A DNA stretch of 64,000 bases from Candidatus Bathyarchaeota archaeon (lineage in GTDB: Archaea; Thermoproteota; Bathyarchaeia; TCS64), in assembly GCA_016783455.1 (NCBI GenBank), contig JADHWN010000006.1:6142-70141 (forward strand), given 5' to 3'. The notes under the pieces are model-generated. The model was given only the letters and a program-made list of their open reading frames with translations, was not told the origin of the DNA and made no database searches. Numbering within the stretch: the first letter of the stretch is position 1; the number at the start of each line of letters is the position of its first letter. The translations under genes were made by a program, and so were the position numbers. Positions 2,192-8,647 of the stretch are shown in pieces.

Positions 2192-3724
2192 ATGTCAAGC
2201 AATTGGGACAAACACTACAACTCGTTGCTCGAGAGATCGAAGGAGCTCAGGGTGCTCATGTCCGCTGGATCCATTCTCGGATGGGATATGCAGACCAAGA
2301 TGCCTCCCGGAGGATTGGAGCTCAGGAGCCAGCAGCTGGCGCTCCTCCAGAAGACGGGCCACCAGATGCTCACCAGCCCGGAGCTGGGAAAGACCCTCAA
2401 GTCGATCGAGGGGCACAAGGACTACGAGAGCCTCACGGAGGTTCAGAAGCGGAACGTGTACCTTGCGCGGTTGGCGTACGACGAGGCAACCAAGCTCCCT
2501 GAGAGGCTTGTCGTCGAGCTGGCCAAGCAGAGGACTATAGGCAGAGGCGTCTGGAGGAAGGCCAAGGCCACCAACGACTGGAAGCTCTTCATGCCCGAGC
2601 TGGAGAAGGTAAAGGCACTGACGGAAGAGTCAGCGCACCTCCTCATGGAGGTCAAGGACGCCACCAACCCGTACGACGCGCTGATCTACGACTACGAGCC
2701 CAAGATGAAGGCCGAAGTCATAACCAAGGTCTTCGACGAGATGAGGCGGGGCATCAAGAGGCTCCTTGAAAAGATCATGGCCCAGCCCAAGCCCGATGTC
2801 AGCTTCCTGAGCAGGGAGATCCCCGTAAGGGTTCAGGAGAAGATCGCCGAGAGCCTGGCCGAGTTCGCCCTGTATGACACCAAGTCGGAGAGGGCCGGCG
2901 GCAGGATCGACGCCACCGAGCACCCCTTCACCACGGGCTACTACACCGATGTCAGGATAACCACGAAGTACTTCGTCAACAACTTCCAGAAGAGCATGTT
3001 CAGCGTCCTCCACGAGGCCGGTCACGCGCTCTACAACATGGGGCTGCCCGCGGAGTGGATGTACCAGCCGGTGGGCGCGGGGGCCAGCAGCGGCATACAC
3101 GAGTCGATGAGCCGGTTCGTCGAGAACCACGTCGGCAGGAGCCGCGAGTTCTGGGAATACTTCATGCCCAAGCTGAAGGGGCTCACGGGTAAGAGGCTGC
3201 GCGATGTCTCCCCGGAGCAGATGTACGCGGCGGTCAACTACGTCACTCCCAGCAAGATCAGGACCCAGTCGGACGAGCTCACCTACGGGATGCACATCAT
3301 AATCAGGTTCGAGCTGGAGAGAGACCTGTTCAACGGGGACCTGGAGGTGAAGGAGCTACCCCAGGTCTGGAATCAGAAGTACATGGACTACCTTGGGGTC
3401 GAGATAGAGACCGACACCGAGGGGGTGATGCAGGACACCCACTGGTCCGGCGGCTCCTTCGGCTACTTCCCCAGCTACGCCCTCGGCAACATCTACGACG
3501 GAGTCTGGCGCGCCAAGATCGACGGCGACCTCCCGGACTGGAAAGAGAGGCTACGGAAAGGCAGTTTCAAGGAGGTCAAGGGCTGGCTAACCGAGAACGT
3601 GTACAGGCACGGTAAGCTCTACGACCCGGAGGAGCTGGTGAAGCGAGTCACGGGGAGGGGCCTCGTCGTCAAACCGTTCTTGGACTACCTAGAAGCCAAG
3701 TACAAGGCCATCTACGGATTCTAA
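2192..3724 (+). CDS. M32 family metallo-carboxypeptidase (Taq-type)
   Basis: HEAGHALY (HExxH) motif, HESMSR, IRTQSDELTY, and ~500 aa length typical of M32. Confidence 0.88.
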   Translation: MSSNWDKHYNSLLERSKELRVLMSAGSILGWDMQTKMPPGGLELRSQQLALLQKTGHQMLTSPELGKTLKSIEGHKDYESLTEVQKRNVYLARLAYDEATKLPERLVVELAKQRTIGRGVWRKAKATNDWKLFMPELEKVKALTEESAHLLMEVKDATNPYDALIYDYEPKMKAEVITKVFDEMRRGIKRLLEKIMAQPKPDVSFLSREIPVRVQEKIAESLAEFALYDTKSERAGGRIDATEHPFTTGYYTDVRITTKYFVNNFQKSMFSVLHEAGHALYNMGLPAEWMYQPVGAGASSGIHESMSRFVENHVGRSREFWEYFMPKLKGLTGKRLRDVSPEQMYAAVNYVTPSKIRTQSDELTYGMHIIIRFELERDLFNGDLEVKELPQVWNQKYMDYLGVEIETDTEGVMQDTHWSGGSFGYFPSYALGNIYDGVWRAKIDGDLPDWKERLRKGSFKEVKGWLTENVYRHGKLYDPEELVKRVTGRGLVVKPFLDYLEAKYKAIYGF

Positions 3725-3822: not shown

Positions 3823-4524
3823 TCACCGCATATACTTGGCGACGACCTCTTCGGTCAGCCTCTTCATGGCCTTGGTCTCGGTCGGGATGACCGCGACCCT
3901 GACGACCGCCGACGTGAGCTCCTCGCCGGAGCCCTTCTCGACGGCCCCGATGGCCAGCTTTATGGCCTCGTCGAGGGACAGGTCCTCCTTGAAGTTCTCC
4001 TCGAGATACTTGTTGGACTCCTCGGCGTTCCTGCCAAGAGCCCGAGCCCTGTAGCCCCTGTAGGAGCCGCTGGGGTCGGTGGTGAGGAGGTGGGGCCCGG
4101 TGGTGTCGACGCCGGCGAAGATAATGCTCACCCCGAATGGCCTGATGCCCCCGTGCTGGGTGTAGACCTGGATCTGGTCGCTCAGCGTGCCCACGAGGCC
4201 CTCTACGTCGGCGGGCTCGTCGTAGAGGAGCTTGTTGCTCTGGCAGAAGACCCGGCCCTTGTCGATGAGGACCCGTGCGTCGGAGCTGAGGCCGGCGATG
4301 GCGACGCCCACGTGCTCGTCGATCTGGAATATCTTCCTGAACGTGCTGGTGTCCTCAAGGTTGCTCTCCGGGGTCTCGTTGGCCGCAAGGACCACGCCCT
4401 CCAGCGAGTGGATGCCCACGATGGGTGCCCCACGCTTCACGAGCTCCAGGGCGTACTCGACCTGGTAGAGGCGCCCCTCGGGCGAGAATATGGTTATGGC
4501 GGCGTCGTACTGGTTTCCCCTCAT
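3823..4524 (-). CDS. psmA: Proteasome subunit alpha
   Basis: MRGNQYDAAITIFSPEGRLYQVEYALE is the canonical alpha N-terminus. I place the start at the internal ATG 4524, because the track ORF begins 25 codons upstream with non-conserved sequence. Confidence 0.93.
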   Translation of the reverse strand: MRGNQYDAAITIFSPEGRLYQVEYALELVKRGAPIVGIHSLEGVVLAANETPESNLEDTSTFRKIFQIDEHVGVAIAGLSSDARVLIDKGRVFCQSNKLLYDEPADVEGLVGTLSDQIQVYTQHGGIRPFGVSIIFAGVDTTGPHLLTTDPSGSYRGYRARALGRNAEESNKYLEENFKEDLSLDEAIKLAIGAVEKGSGEELTSAVVRVAVIPTETKAMKRLTEEVVAKYMR

Positions 4525-4642
4525 CAACTTTGTGACCTTCCTTGAGCTTCGATATGAAATGTAGTCAGCATATATAAACGTCGTTGAGGGCGGGGGCAAC
4601 AGTCAAATATGGTATGTTGAACGTTCTCAGCGGAGTTATTAT

Positions 4643-5518
4643 ATGGTGAAGACGAACAAGGAGAACCTCCTGGAGATTGCGCTGCAGGGCGAGATAACCC
4701 ACACGGCGATCCCCTCCACTTACACCACCACCTGGGATAACAAGTCCCAGATGAGCCTGGGTAGGGGGGGCATCGTCTACAACGTCAAGGTGGGCGACCC
4801 CTGCTACGGCTGGGAGCTCGGCGACAACGTCGAGCCCGGGGTCTCCGCGGACGGTACGGACACCGACCGTGCCAAGGGGGGCTTCAGGAACCTGTCCAAC
4901 ATAGGGAACAGGGTCAAGGTCCTCGGCGGAGAGGCCAAAGGGAAGTGGGGCACAGTCATCGGGAAGGTGGGGTACCTGCCCGGGAGGGGCCATCACGTGG
5001 TGATGCACTTCAAGCAGGACGTCATAGACGACCTCACCATCGGCGACAAGGTCCAGATACGCGCCAAGGGGGCGGGGCACAAGTTCCTCGACTACCCCGG
5101 CGTGGCCGTCGTCAGCTGCAGCCCGGAGCTGGTGGAGTCCTGGGGGATCGAGGAGAAGGACGGCAAGCTCCACGTGCCCGTGACCAAGGTGGTCCCCATG
5201 GACTACGTGGGCCAGGGCGCCGGGGGCTCCCCGCCTCAGGCCAGCAACTGGGACATCCAGACCCAGAGCCCCGACGCCGTGGAGTTCTGCAAGGACTTCA
5301 GGTTCGGGGACATCGTGCTCCTGGAGGACACATTGTCCTACTACGGCCGGGGCTACTACCACGGCGCGGTGACCGTGGGCGTCGTAATCACGGGCCCAAG
5401 CAACCACATGGGCCACGGCATCGGCGTCTCCACTCTGCTCTCCTGCAAGGAGGGTCAGATCGTGCCCAAGGTGGATCCGGACCTGAACCTGAAGAAGATG
5501 CTGGACCTGGAGGTATGA
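4643..5518 (+). CDS. DUF4438-like protein, paralog A (291 aa), function unknown
   Basis: N-terminus MVKTNKENLLEIALQGEI, GDPCYGWELGDNVEPGV, GRGYYHGAVTVGVV, GHGIGVSTLL. The family is recalled from memory and needs HMM confirmation. Confidence 0.7.
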   Translation: MVKTNKENLLEIALQGEITHTAIPSTYTTTWDNKSQMSLGRGGIVYNVKVGDPCYGWELGDNVEPGVSADGTDTDRAKGGFRNLSNIGNRVKVLGGEAKGKWGTVIGKVGYLPGRGHHVVMHFKQDVIDDLTIGDKVQIRAKGAGHKFLDYPGVAVVSCSPELVESWGIEEKDGKLHVPVTKVVPMDYVGQGAGGSPPQASNWDIQTQSPDAVEFCKDFRFGDIVLLEDTLSYYGRGYYHGAVTVGVVITGPSNHMGHGIGVSTLLSCKEGQIVPKVDPDLNLKKMLDLEV

Positions 5519-5522
5519 GAAG

Positions 5523-6398
5523 ATGATTGAGACTAACAAGGACAAGCTGCTGAAGCTCGCAGTCATGGGCGAGATAGTGCCATCAGGGAGTGGGGGCTAC
5601 AGGCCCACGTGGAACGGCGTCCCCAAGATGTCCCTGGGCATGGGGGGCATCAAGTACAACCTCAGGGTTGGAGACCTCTGCTACGGCTGGGCCTCAGGCG
5701 ACCACGTCGAGCCTGGGGTCACCATCAGAGGGACGGAGAAGCCCTCCCCCAGCGAGTGTGCCCTGGCGCTCCTGGCCTGCATAGGCAACGAGGCGAGGCT
5801 CACCTCAGGCGAGGCGAAGAACGAGAAGGGGGTGTTCACGGGCAGGCACGCAGGCTCGGACGACCTGATCTGGTTCCCGGAGGAGACCATCGAGAAGCTT
5901 GCCATAGGCGACAAGGTCCAGGTGAAGGCCCACGGCGTCGGCCTGAAGATAAAAGGCTTCGAGGACGTCCGGGTCAACAAGTGCAGCCCCAGGCTCCTGG
6001 AAAACTTGGGCATTGAGATCGACGGAGACCAGCTCGTGGTCCCGGTCGTGGCTGAGATACCCGGGTTCCTCATGGGCTCCGGGATCGGCTCATCCCAGAA
6101 CGTGGAGCCGGGCGACTACGACATCCAGACCACGGACCCCGCCACCAACGAGAAGTATGGCCTCAAGAAGCTCCGCCTCGGCGACATCGTCCTCCTGCAG
6201 GACCAGCTGTGCATGAACGGCAGGGGCTACTACAAGGGGTCCATGACCATCGGGACGATAATCCATGGATGGAGCGACTCCGCTGGCCACGGGCCGGGCG
6301 TCAACCCGCTGCTCAGCACCATAGGCAGACGAATTAGGACCGTCATCGACCCGAGGGCCAACACGGCGAGGTACCTGGGGCTGAGGGACGACCTCTAA
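5523..6398 (+). CDS. DUF4438-like protein, paralog B (291 aa), function unknown
   Basis: Collinear with paralog A over the full length (MIETNKDKLLKLAVMGEI, GDLCYGWASGDHVEPGV, GRGYYKGSMTIGTI, GHGPGVNPLL). The ATG lies 4 nt after the stop of A, and GGAGGT sits inside the end of A. Confidence 0.7.
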   Translation: MIETNKDKLLKLAVMGEIVPSGSGGYRPTWNGVPKMSLGMGGIKYNLRVGDLCYGWASGDHVEPGVTIRGTEKPSPSECALALLACIGNEARLTSGEAKNEKGVFTGRHAGSDDLIWFPEETIEKLAIGDKVQVKAHGVGLKIKGFEDVRVNKCSPRLLENLGIEIDGDQLVVPVVAEIPGFLMGSGIGSSQNVEPGDYDIQTTDPATNEKYGLKKLRLGDIVLLQDQLCMNGRGYYKGSMTIGTIIHGWSDSAGHGPGVNPLLSTIGRRIRTVIDPRANTARYLGLRDDL

Positions 6399-6402
6399 CC
6401 CC

Positions 6403-6413
6403 TTTTTCCTTTT
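6403..6413 (+). terminator. T-rich terminator (TTTTTCCTTTT) after the DUF4438 pair
   Basis: Begins 5 nt after stop TAA at 6396-6398. Confidence 0.45.
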
Positions 6414-6989: not shown

Positions 6990-7487
6990 ATGTCATGTAT
7001 AGACTTAATCCTGAAGAGGAGGAGCATCCGGAAGTACAGCAGCGAGCCCGTCTCCGAGGAGGTGAAGGCGAAGATCCTCGAGGCGGGTAGGCAGGCGCCG
7101 AGCGCGGTGAACGCCCAGCCGTGGCACTTCATCGTCGTCGACGATCCCGCCCTCAAGGAGAGCCTCGCCTCGACGGGCAGGTGGCGCTCGTTCATCAGGG
7201 ACTGTTCCTTCGTCGTCGTGGGGCTCTACAAGTCCCATAACCCGATTACGAAGAGGTGGGGCCAGGTGGACACCGTGATCGCGCTTCAGAACATGGTACT
7301 CGCCGCCCAGGTGCAGGGAGTGGGGAGCTGCTGGATAGGTGACCTGTCTGGGGACGTGAAGGGGCTCCTGGGGATACCAGGGGGCGCGGAGATCGTCGCG
7401 TTGATATCCTTCGGGATCCCGGACGAGGAGCCCGGTCAGAAGTCCAAGAAGGACCCCAAGAAGATATTCCACTACAATAGATGGTGA
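6990..7487 (+). CDS. Nitroreductase family protein
   Basis: ILKRRSIRKY..EAGRQAPSAVNAQPWHFIVV signature. Confidence 0.85.
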   Translation: MSCIDLILKRRSIRKYSSEPVSEEVKAKILEAGRQAPSAVNAQPWHFIVVDDPALKESLASTGRWRSFIRDCSFVVVGLYKSHNPITKRWGQVDTVIALQNMVLAAQVQGVGSCWIGDLSGDVKGLLGIPGGAEIVALISFGIPDEEPGQKSKKDPKKIFHYNRW

Positions 7488-7493
7488 TTTTTT
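7488..7493 (+). terminator. Oligo-T run directly after the nitroreductase stop
   Basis: TGA at 7485-7487 followed by TTTTTT. A (CG)4C run follows at 7503-7511. Confidence 0.35.
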
Positions 7494-7522
7494 CACCAAT
7501 CTCGCGCGCGCTTTGAAACGAT

Positions 7523-8647
7523 TCATTCATTGGCGCTCTTTTCCCTCATAAGGCGTTTATAGTTGATGGCTGCGATGCGGAGGGGCTTCTCCGGTATGAG
7601 CCCCTTGGGCCTCAAGATCATGACCCCCAGGAGGAGAAGTCCCAGCAGCTGCTGCTCGAAGATAACGATGGGGTACCAGACGAACATCTCTAGCTGCCCC
7701 CTGAAGACGATTATCAACCGCCTCATCGCGATAACGAGGGCGCAGCCGATCCATGTGCCCGCGCTGTTACCTGGACCCCCGATCATGAGCATCAACCACG
7801 GTAGGTAGGTCCAGGTGAACGAAGTGAAGCTGGTATCGATCATGTAGGTGTAGTAGTAGGAGAGGAGCACGCCGACGAGGGCGGTGATGCCGGAGCCGAA
7901 CATCAGCACATTCCTCCTTATCGCGGTCACGTCCTTGCCGATGCTGTTCACAGTCAGGCCGTTCTCCCTAGCCGCTCTCATCAGCCTGCCGCTGGGCGAG
8001 TTGAGCATCGTCCTCAGTATGAAGTAGCAGACGACGCCGATGGTCAGTGTGACCACTGCATTCAGGATGGTCCTGTCCCCGGGATACCAAGCTAGAACGT
8101 TCGGGACGAACATCCCCCCCGTTCCGCCGGAAATCAGGACGATTCTCCTTCCGAAGATCCTTAAGGCGTCTCCCATTGTTATCAGCGCGATGATGAGGTA
8201 AGTCGGCTTTAGCCTGATGGCTGGGAGGGAGATCACGTAGCCCAGCGCCCATCCGGCGACGAAGGCCAGCGCCAGGGAGAGGAGGAACATAGTGACTCCC
8301 AGGAAGGCGTGGGATTGCAGGTAGTCGTTCATTATATCGATGTTAACACAGTTGTTTCGCATCCAGTCCATTTTACTCGCCCAGGGAAGGATGTCCAGTC
8401 CGGCCTGCATGCCGATCCAGAAAATGAGCCTCGTGACGATCGAGTTGACCACATAGCCACCTACGGAGGCAGATAATCCGCAGGCCATGTTGGGCACGCC
8501 GGCGTTCCCATACTGGAAGTTGAGGGCCAAAGTGACTATGAAGAGGAGCCCGAACATCATTGCTAGGTCGATGACGATCCTCTGGTATGCGGTCGCGGCT
8601 ATTGAGCCCAATAGACCTATCATTCTGATGGCGTACCCACCAACCAA
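7523..8647 (-). CDS. Branched-chain amino acid ABC transporter permease-like protein (LivM/BPD_transp_2-like), orphan
   Basis: Multi-TM protein. NFQYGNAGVPNM.., GRLMRAARENGLTVNSIGKDV, LMIGGPGNSAGTWIG and RPKGLIPEKP match the LivM-type layout. No ATPase, partner permease or binding protein is adjacent. Confidence 0.6.
   Translation of the reverse strand: MVGGYAIRMIGLLGSIAATAYQRIVIDLAMMFGLLFIVTLALNFQYGNAGVPNMACGLSASVGGYVVNSIVTRLIFWIGMQAGLDILPWASKMDWMRNNCVNIDIMNDYLQSHAFLGVTMFLLSLALAFVAGWALGYVISLPAIRLKPTYLIIALITMGDALRIFGRRIVLISGGTGGMFVPNVLAWYPGDRTILNAVVTLTIGVVCYFILRTMLNSPSGRLMRAARENGLTVNSIGKDVTAIRRNVLMFGSGITALVGVLLSYYYTYMIDTSFTSFTWTYLPWLMLMIGGPGNSAGTWIGCALVIAMRRLIIVFRGQLEMFVWYPIVIFEQQLLGLLLLGVMILRPKGLIPEKPLRIAAINYKRLMREKSANE

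Follow-up and report, generated by a model that had tools for sequence, protein, structure and literature searches.

A 64,000-nucleotide (nt) stretch of DNA from Candidatus Bathyarchaeota archaeon (GCA_016783455.1, contig JADHWN010000006.1), here called the window, whose positions serve as coordinates, carries two adjoining genes, A and B, that encode paralogs of the DUF4438 family, to which TM1086 of Thermotoga maritima belongs. Our analysis suggests that these ancient paralogs would be co-produced from a single short transcript and would join as a heteromer, the unit being an A:B heterodimer, possibly within a larger ring like the large assemblies of TM1086. In B, a cluster of polar residues (four His, Cys, Ser, two Asp, Glu, Arg and Tyr) would form a metal-binding or catalytic site; A, which has lost most of this cluster and kept the fold, would serve as its structural or specificity partner without a catalytic role. 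Most likely the complex would be an enzyme whose substrate is a compound of the amino-acid, peptide or amide type; the four paralogous pairs found in the genome would then be isoforms. We consider this reading as a whole, i.e. a heteromer of a live B and a degenerate structural A that serves as an enzyme of amino-acid or peptide catabolism, somewhat probable; the heteromer with its live and dead subunits is likely, the enzymatic part less so.

A translationally coupled pair of DUF4438 paralogs

The pair comprises the following features:

4643-5518, plus strand: gene A, DUF4438 paralog of 291 amino acids (aa), defined by its open reading frame (ORF) and Pfam matches
5509-5514, plus strand: GGAGGT, Shine-Dalgarno-like site for B within the 3' end of A, 8 nt before the ATG of B, read directly from the sequence
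5523-6398, plus strand: gene B, DUF4438 paralog of 291 aa, defined by its ORF and Pfam matches
6403-6413, plus strand: oligo-T tracts T5 (6403-6407) and T4 (6410-6413), 5 nt past the stop of B, read directly from the sequence

The TGA stop of A (5516-5518) is followed by the spacer gaag (5519-5522) and then by the ATG of B at 5523, so that the two genes occupy different reading frames; B ends with TAA at 6396-6398. The preliminary description of this DNA had reported two tandem 291-aa ORFs with a 4-nt gap and a GGAGGT embedded in the end of the first, which is what the sequence contains. We sought the 3' end of 16S rRNA, with the anti-Shine-Dalgarno site for GGAGGT, in this metagenome-assembled genome (MAG) and did not find it. 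The translational coupling proposed earlier extends to other genomes, the start of B lying within -8 to +6 nt of the stop of A in 19 of the 20 pairs examined. The idea that the pair is a self-contained two-gene unit also stood: 15 of 19 pairs have a tract of at least five T no more than 30 nt past the stop of B, and the downstream genes vary between genera. In the window the oligo-T tracts after B are a probable archaeal terminator of the unit. A search for RNA evidence of A-B co-transcription matched the locus in DNA metagenomes only. The same locus DNA was recovered in several independent marine-sediment and subsurface metagenomes and is therefore not an assembly artefact.

BLASTP aligns A and B over 294 columns with 41% identity (E 9e-68), close to the roughly 40% that had been estimated by eye, so their likeness is not due to chance, and all five conserved motif blocks quoted earlier occur in both proteins. 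The proposed membership in DUF4438 was borne out as well. Both proteins score above the gathering cut-offs of PF14505 (DUF4438 N; 119.1 bits for A and 147.0 bits for B, cut-off 24.9) and of PF20999 (DUF4438_C; 110.9 and 130.3 bits, cut-off 27), which is collinear with the N domain, and with 291 aa both fall in the length range of about 273-300 aa that we used to delimit the family. This family is small, with 659 clusters at 50% identity (E <= 1e-3) among 1.84 billion representatives.

A and B match TM1086 (PDB 3DCL, 3N99) from end to end, with E-values of 6e-58 and 2e-64, respectively. A Foldseek comparison of predicted structures had been suggested in the preliminary description: the AlphaFold2 (AF2) model of A (predicted local distance difference test, pLDDT, 92.8; predicted template-modelling score, pTM, 0.93) matches 3dcl in Foldseek with a template-modelling (TM) score of 0.91-0.94 and a root-mean-square deviation of 1.9 A. 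Searched against the PDB, neither this model nor the halves of an A-B fusion protein described below (L034) retrieved any fold but that of TM1086; the next matches, Spt5 KOW arrays and the barrels of the membrane-fusion proteins BesA/CusB, have TM scores below 0.25. Searches of NCBIfam and, with permissive settings, of Pfam returned DUF4438 alone, plus insignificant KOW matches, and the PADLOC models of anti-phage defence gave no match at E <= 1. The statement that the family has no assigned function agrees with our literature searches on DUF4438, TM1086, 3DCL/3N99 and PF14505, which yielded nothing on function; the searchable library held no paper on the function, pairing or fusions of DUF4438. 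One mention of PF14505 in the literature turned out to be a mislabelled CAP_assoc_N. TM1086 thus gives no clue to mechanism, since it is itself without a known function.

One old duplication followed by multiplication of whole pairs

The host MAG (2.19 Mb, about 75% complete) contains eight DUF4438 genes, which form four tandem pairs; we name the pair types after their contigs, C2 (the window), C5, C17 and C59. Three pairs occur in a closed genome of this genus, and five in a further genome. To survey the distribution in Bathyarchaeia we used 251 genomes, each at least 80% complete, 90 of which carry DUF4438. Outside f1, the family to which the window belongs, and one genome of its sister family f2, the genomes that carry the family have one high-scoring singleton, with the exception of G251, which has two unlinked high-scoring copies; the genus of the window lacks any DUF4438 singleton. 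Pairs are thus confined, in this sample, to one lineage, namely one family and one sister-family genome. These findings contradict the possibility, raised earlier, that archaea carry pairs and bacteria singletons: most of the family-bearing Bathyarchaeia have singletons, while bacteria have both singletons and fused doubles.

In a tree of 44 sequences from the genome and its relatives, the A and B copies separate, the same four subfamilies recur on each side, and the singletons fall outside. A tree of 148 sequences likewise places the singletons in one clade (support 99) and the A copies in another (support 93), and it unites the B copies in one clade save the C59-type B, whose placement is uncertain. 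The gene order is A then B in all pairs, without exception. The distances among A copies correlate with those among their B partners (mirror-tree r 0.915, reached in none of 2000 permutations), although part of this correlation is expected from linkage alone. Because A and B form separate clades with mirrored branching, the trees indicate that one old A/B duplication preceded the multiplication of whole pairs.

The hetero-oligomer that had been proposed for the pair is strongly, if indirectly, supported by these mirrored clades, by the natural A-B fusions and by the confident packing of one of them in an AF2 model (see below). The equal length of the two proteins, which had been offered as an argument for it, does not stand: the other pairs of the genome measure 294/293, 305/about 286 and 309/297 aa, so the equality in the window is a coincidence.

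Natural A-B fusions

Fused A-B genes were found at 21 loci and encode proteins of 589-668 aa (two more, incomplete ORFs are shorter). Their hosts are one Bathyarchaeon (L034, JAFGHP010000020.1, 589 aa) and about 20 MAGs of Aminicenantes/Saccharicenans, Acidobacteriota, Eubacteriales and KSB1 (L031, L033, L035-L052). In the 148-sequence tree the N-terminal halves fall in the A clade and the C-terminal halves in the B clade, and none of the 21 fusions is of the A-A or B-B kind. If split pairs elsewhere that happen to be in frame were read through, they would have a linker of 1-2 residues, compared with at least 15 in the natural fusions. The closest relatives of B beyond the pair lineage are the C-terminal halves of fusions (56-64% identity), as against about 46% for the Bathyarchaeial singletons. 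In both subtrees the fusion halves nest within the C5-type subfamily, with the split Bathyarchaeial pairs in basal positions, which suggests, within limited sampling, that the fusion occurred first and that the fused gene was then transferred across domains to bacteria. All 19 complete bacterial fusions start with a basic and then strongly hydrophobic, signal-peptide-like segment, which the archaeal A and B proteins lack; the bacterial fusions are therefore probably exported.

The AF2 model of the L034 fusion, calculated from an alignment of 19 fusions and five split pairs, has a pLDDT of 87.4 and a pTM of 0.88. Each half matches TM1086 in Foldseek (TMt 0.92), residues 290-295 form a disordered linker, and the two halves are confidently placed relative to each other in the prediction.

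Asymmetric loss of conserved residues under purifying selection

Comparison of 54 singletons, 47 B copies and 47 A copies revealed eleven polar positions that are conserved in 98-100% of the singletons and in 91-100% of the B copies and are degenerate in A. In the numbering of B they are H61, E63, C86, H109, S186, D198, Y199, D200, R234, H248 and H256. The B protein of the window has all eleven, while its A protein reads N, E, N, V, Q, N, W, D, R, T and H at the same positions and thus keeps four (E, D200, R and H256). By this signature A is a degenerate member of DUF4438. Its evolution is also more rapid, the mean p-distance being 0.49 as compared to 0.40 for B. Nevertheless, the ratios of nonsynonymous to synonymous substitution rates (dN/dS) are low for both genes: measured against the close G003 orthologs A has 0.07 and B 0.06, and against the more distant G002 ortholog the values are 0.26 and 0.17, respectively. 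Judged by these ratios A is not decaying, and both genes are under strong purifying selection.

We regard the polar set as a putative metal or catalytic centre because it is invariant across phyla and has been lost as a set in the partner, and A as a structural or specificity partner because it has lost most of the cluster yet retains the fold under equally strong purifying selection. The pattern reaches beyond Bathyarchaeia. Of 86 full-length sequences representing the entire family, about half show a degenerate signature, and the tree requires at least four origins of this state; the clade of Bathyarchaeia and fusions has its own A/B split (support 99). The pair may illustrate how a homo-oligomer turns into a heteromer of live and dead subunits, a change that the family-wide tree suggests to have happened at least four times.

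Gene context and proposed function

The pairs of different types have different neighbours. C17-type pairs adjoin genes for phosphoenolpyruvate carboxykinase (PEPCK), a class-III aminotransferase, a SelA-like pyridoxal-phosphate enzyme and, by eye, a predicted DmpA-type peptidase. A PK_C-like protein precedes the C5-type pairs as well as the archaeal fusion orthologous to them, and near these lie a SelA-like enzyme, a major facilitator superfamily transporter and a Liv-type permease (the last two identified by eye). Several fusions adjoin D-aminoacylase-type amidohydrolases, one of which has a signal peptide of its own, and a singleton in Lutispora closes an operon with a sigma54 gene, an amino-acid permease, an old yellow enzyme (OYE) homolog and an epimerase. 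These contexts point to amino-acid or peptide catabolism as the likely setting. Export of the bacterial fusions would favour a chemistry that proceeds outside the cytoplasm without a cytoplasmic cofactor, e.g. that of a hydrolase or lyase. From the shared signature and the neighbours we infer an active site in B and the class of both enzyme and substrate.

Two further observations concern the neighbourhoods. At the L043 locus the genes next to the fusion encode a secreted D-aminoacylase-like amidohydrolase, a GntR regulator and an apparent glutamate-mutase/methylaspartase set (on an orthologous locus Pfam identifies the MutL family alone). Genes for a LivM-like branched-chain amino-acid ABC (ATP-binding cassette) permease, recognised by eye, lie about 1-4 kb from both the C2-type and the C5-type pairs (window 7523-8647, minus strand, and G000:C5:46601-47701) and belong to the same homology cluster (c26).

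Several points weigh against the interpretation of A and B as a live/dead heteromeric enzyme. The confident packing was obtained for the L034 fusion, whose halves share 47% and 61% identity with A and B, respectively, and not for the proteins of the window, for which a contact between A and B is putative. The signature residues could equally be structural, or they could make contacts in a homo-oligomer that are dispensable in A. The crystals of TM1086 contain 5 and 30 identical chains per asymmetric unit, which fits pentamer-based assemblies. Finally, the gene contexts are heterogeneous, and the C2-type pair of the window resides among housekeeping genes (RadA, MobA, TiaS, Nnr). The context of this pair adds nothing to the case for a catabolic enzyme, which consequently leans on the paralogs and on distant relatives.

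Alternative explanations

The A:B complex could be something other than an enzyme, i.e. an assembly with a structural or binding role, for instance a ring or cage for a metal, a ligand or a partner protein, with the conserved residues forming the binding site. The fold would suit such a role, since the proteins consist of small beta-barrels only, with a weak likeness to KOW/SH3-like and membrane-fusion-protein barrels, and resemble no known enzyme. So would the very large crystal assemblies of TM1086, which exceed 1 MDa per asymmetric unit, the predicted export of the bacterial fusions and the heterogeneity of the contexts. We nevertheless find this explanation unlikely, as four His, a Cys, two Asp, a Glu, a Ser and an Arg that are invariant across distant phyla and have disappeared together from the partner make up the usual signature of a catalytic or metal site, and the family member of Lutispora is encoded in a catabolic operon.

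Alternatively, A and B might not interact at all: they would be sub- or neo-functionalised paralogs forming separate homo-oligomers and kept adjacent by co-regulation only. TM1086 crystallised as a homo-oligomer, singletons are the commonest state in Bathyarchaeia, and A is itself under purifying selection, all of which would be expected in that case. The invariant gene order, the coupling of stop and start in nearly every pair and the duplication and transfer of the pair as a unit, visible in the mirrored trees, would not; nor would the repeated fusion of A to B and the confident packing of the fused halves. We therefore hold this possibility to be improbable, and continue to prefer the heteromer of live B and degenerate A.

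The divergent proteasome gene

Upstream of A, on the opposite strand, lies a proteasome alpha-subunit gene, and a functional tie between the two had to be considered. The relevant features are:

3823-4524, minus strand: psmA-2, second proteasome alpha-subunit paralog (PF00227 and PF10584, conserved MRGNQYD start), the divergent neighbour of the pair
4547-4561: conserved CTTCGATATGAAATG in the psmA leader, recognised by comparison of relatives
4570-4579, minus strand: ATATATAAAC, i.e. GTTTATATAT on the minus strand, TATA box facing psmA, recurring at the same place in relatives
4602-4610, plus strand: GTCAAATAT, TATA-like box facing A, about 33-41 nt before the ATG of A, conserved across genera

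The spacer between psmA-2 and A comprises 118 nt (4525-4642) and includes a GGAG upstream of A at 4632-4635. We compared the psmA|A intergenic regions of seven relatives; an eighth (L023) was left out, as it is shortened by an over-long ORF call. Where the window has GTCAAATAT, relatives have GTCAAATA, GTAAAATA or TTAAAAATA, and this box probably serves the A-B unit as core promoter. The box ATATATAAAC is identical in G000, G003, G015 and G005, one base off in G002 and G012, and more degenerate in G011; we infer that it is the promoter of psmA. The preliminary description had envisaged a 118-nt divergent control region shared by the pair and the proteasome alpha gene. The spacer is real, but it contains two separate conserved TATA-like boxes, and the gene on its other side is a second alpha paralog that also occurs without the pair.

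The canonical psmA of this genome is located on contig C5 (G000:C5:68922-69626) where it opens the exosome superoperon ahead of SBDS, Rrp4 and Rrp41, and is about 68% identical to psmA-2. The second alpha paralog is present throughout the order (families f1 and f4), while more distant families of Bathyarchaeia have a single alpha gene. As for the linkage to psmA, whose conservation the preliminary description had proposed to survey, it applies to one pair type: the C2-type pair adjoins psmA-2 in all nine loci, from at least six genera, whereas the C5-, C17- and C59-type pairs, the fusions and the singletons found elsewhere are not linked to psmA. The genes past both ends of this trio vary (upstream RadA or a member of cluster c16, downstream GNAT, TiaS or others), and those around the C2-type pair of the window comprise MobA, RadA, psmA, GNAT, nitroreductase, TiaS, CBS, HAD and Nnr. 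In the window an M32 (Taq-type) carboxypeptidase is encoded just past psmA (2192-3724, plus strand); it is absent at that place from the relatives examined and hence stands outside the conserved trio.

Conversely, psmA-2 orthologs, 75-76% identical, lack an adjoining pair in G019, G023, G021, G014 and the genomes of family f4. In G019, which belongs to the genus of the pair-bearing G015, the synteny from RadA through psmA-2 to TiaS is intact, and a relic of A of about 30-70 codons lies beside psmA-2. This relic occupies positions 8281-8492 of locus L116 (G019:C50), next to psmA-2 at 7450-8229, and includes 28 aa at 61% identity plus further fragments. By this trace the pair has been deleted from the G019 locus, which makes it a presence/absence polymorphism within one genus. 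The pair appears to have been inserted beside psmA-2 in an ancestor and to be dispensable for psmA-2; since psmA-2 persists in relatives that lack the pair and none of the other three pair types lies close to psmA, we view the link as positional.

It is thus very improbable that the pair is functionally tied to the proteasome, being co-regulated with psmA-2 from a shared divergent region and acting as a peptidase on proteasome products or as a factor for particles containing psmA-2: the constancy of the C2-type arrangement amid changing outer genes, the short spacer with its conserved motifs, the M32 carboxypeptidase, same-family singletons near the thermosome (adjoining it in two of three loci and six genes away in the third), C59-type pairs near an HtpX-type M48 protease and a conserved Cys/Ser-His-Asp set that would suit a hydrolase speak for it, but they are opposed by the psmA-2 orthologs that have no pair, by the remoteness of all other pair types, fusions and singletons from psmA, by the two separate promoter-like boxes, and by the fact that neither sequence (Pfam) nor fold (Foldseek) searches revealed a peptidase family for A or B. 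A bolder picture that combines these elements with the live/dead heteromer is hardly more plausible. In it DUF4438 would be an unrecognised enzyme family made of small beta-barrels only, with a His/Cys/Asp/Glu centre (a metal site or a triad) and a ring of live/dead heterodimers; the four isoforms of Bathyarchaeia would hydrolyse compounds derived from peptides, the C2-type one being co-expressed with a specialised psmA-2 proteasome to finish protein breakdown; and the module, after fusion and the gain of a signal peptide, would have reached sediment bacteria.

Irregular gene models

Three gene models among the pairs are irregular. In G002 (L009, G002:C1 7698-8540, minus strand) B has no ATG, GTG or TTG near the stop of A, the first start being at +47; in G005 (L026, G005:C29 5038-5951) B is split over two overlapping frames; and an apparent pair from Acidobacteriota (L032, 9160-10873) looks like a frameshifted fusion. 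Sequencing errors, pseudogenes or unusual starts could account for them.

Among the singletons, L113 (G017:C38, minus strand) and L114 (G012:C172, plus strand), from two genera, share an in-frame TAG at codon 58. It replaces the family-invariant Trp of the GDxxxGW motif, and the ORFs are otherwise intact. With a dS of about 1.0 between the two and a dN/dS of 0.15 both before and after the TAG, the codon seems to be inherited and the gene still selected, and the TAG may be read through or recoded. We rejected pyrrolysine at this position, as neither genome encodes PylS. The singleton of G024 (L115) is a decayed pseudogene.

Significance and comparison with known systems

A crystal structure of a DUF4438 protein has existed since 2008, while function and literature are absent; the paired and fused forms now offer handles for study. 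They single out B as the subunit to mutate, the signature residues (the four His, Cys, two Asp, Glu, Ser and Arg) as targets, and A together with B, or a natural fusion, as the form to express, and they imply that some versions of the family, the bacterial fusions, probably act extracellularly. In anoxic sediments Bathyarchaeia rank with the most abundant archaea, and detrital protein is believed to be a large part of their diet; the expansion of the family to four coupled pairs per genome may therefore matter for their catabolism.

Among known proteins TM1086 is the closest in kind. It has the same two-domain architecture and length, and both proteins of the window match it over their full length, B retaining nearly all of the residues that are invariant in TM1086-like singletons. 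It differs in being the product of a single gene that forms homo-oligomers, whereas here two diverged genes are coupled and A lacks seven of the eleven signature residues. The fused DUF4438 proteins share the asymmetry of the window pair, with a degenerate N-terminal and a conserved C-terminal half, but they are single polypeptides with linkers of about 15-45 residues and are nested in the C5-type subfamily rather than in the C2-type of the window.

A parallel outside the family is provided by Rrp41 and Rrp42 of the archaeal exosome, a pair of active and inactive RNase PH paralogs that are encoded by adjacent genes and have been shown experimentally to form a heteromer; this pair is encoded in the same genome as A and B. 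The two systems are alike, by analogy and not by homology, in that a homo-oligomeric ancestor would have given rise to a heterodimer of a catalytic and a degenerate paralog encoded by coupled genes side by side. They differ in that their folds and chemistries are unrelated, and in that the heteromer of the exosome is established by experiment, while that of A and B is a proposal.

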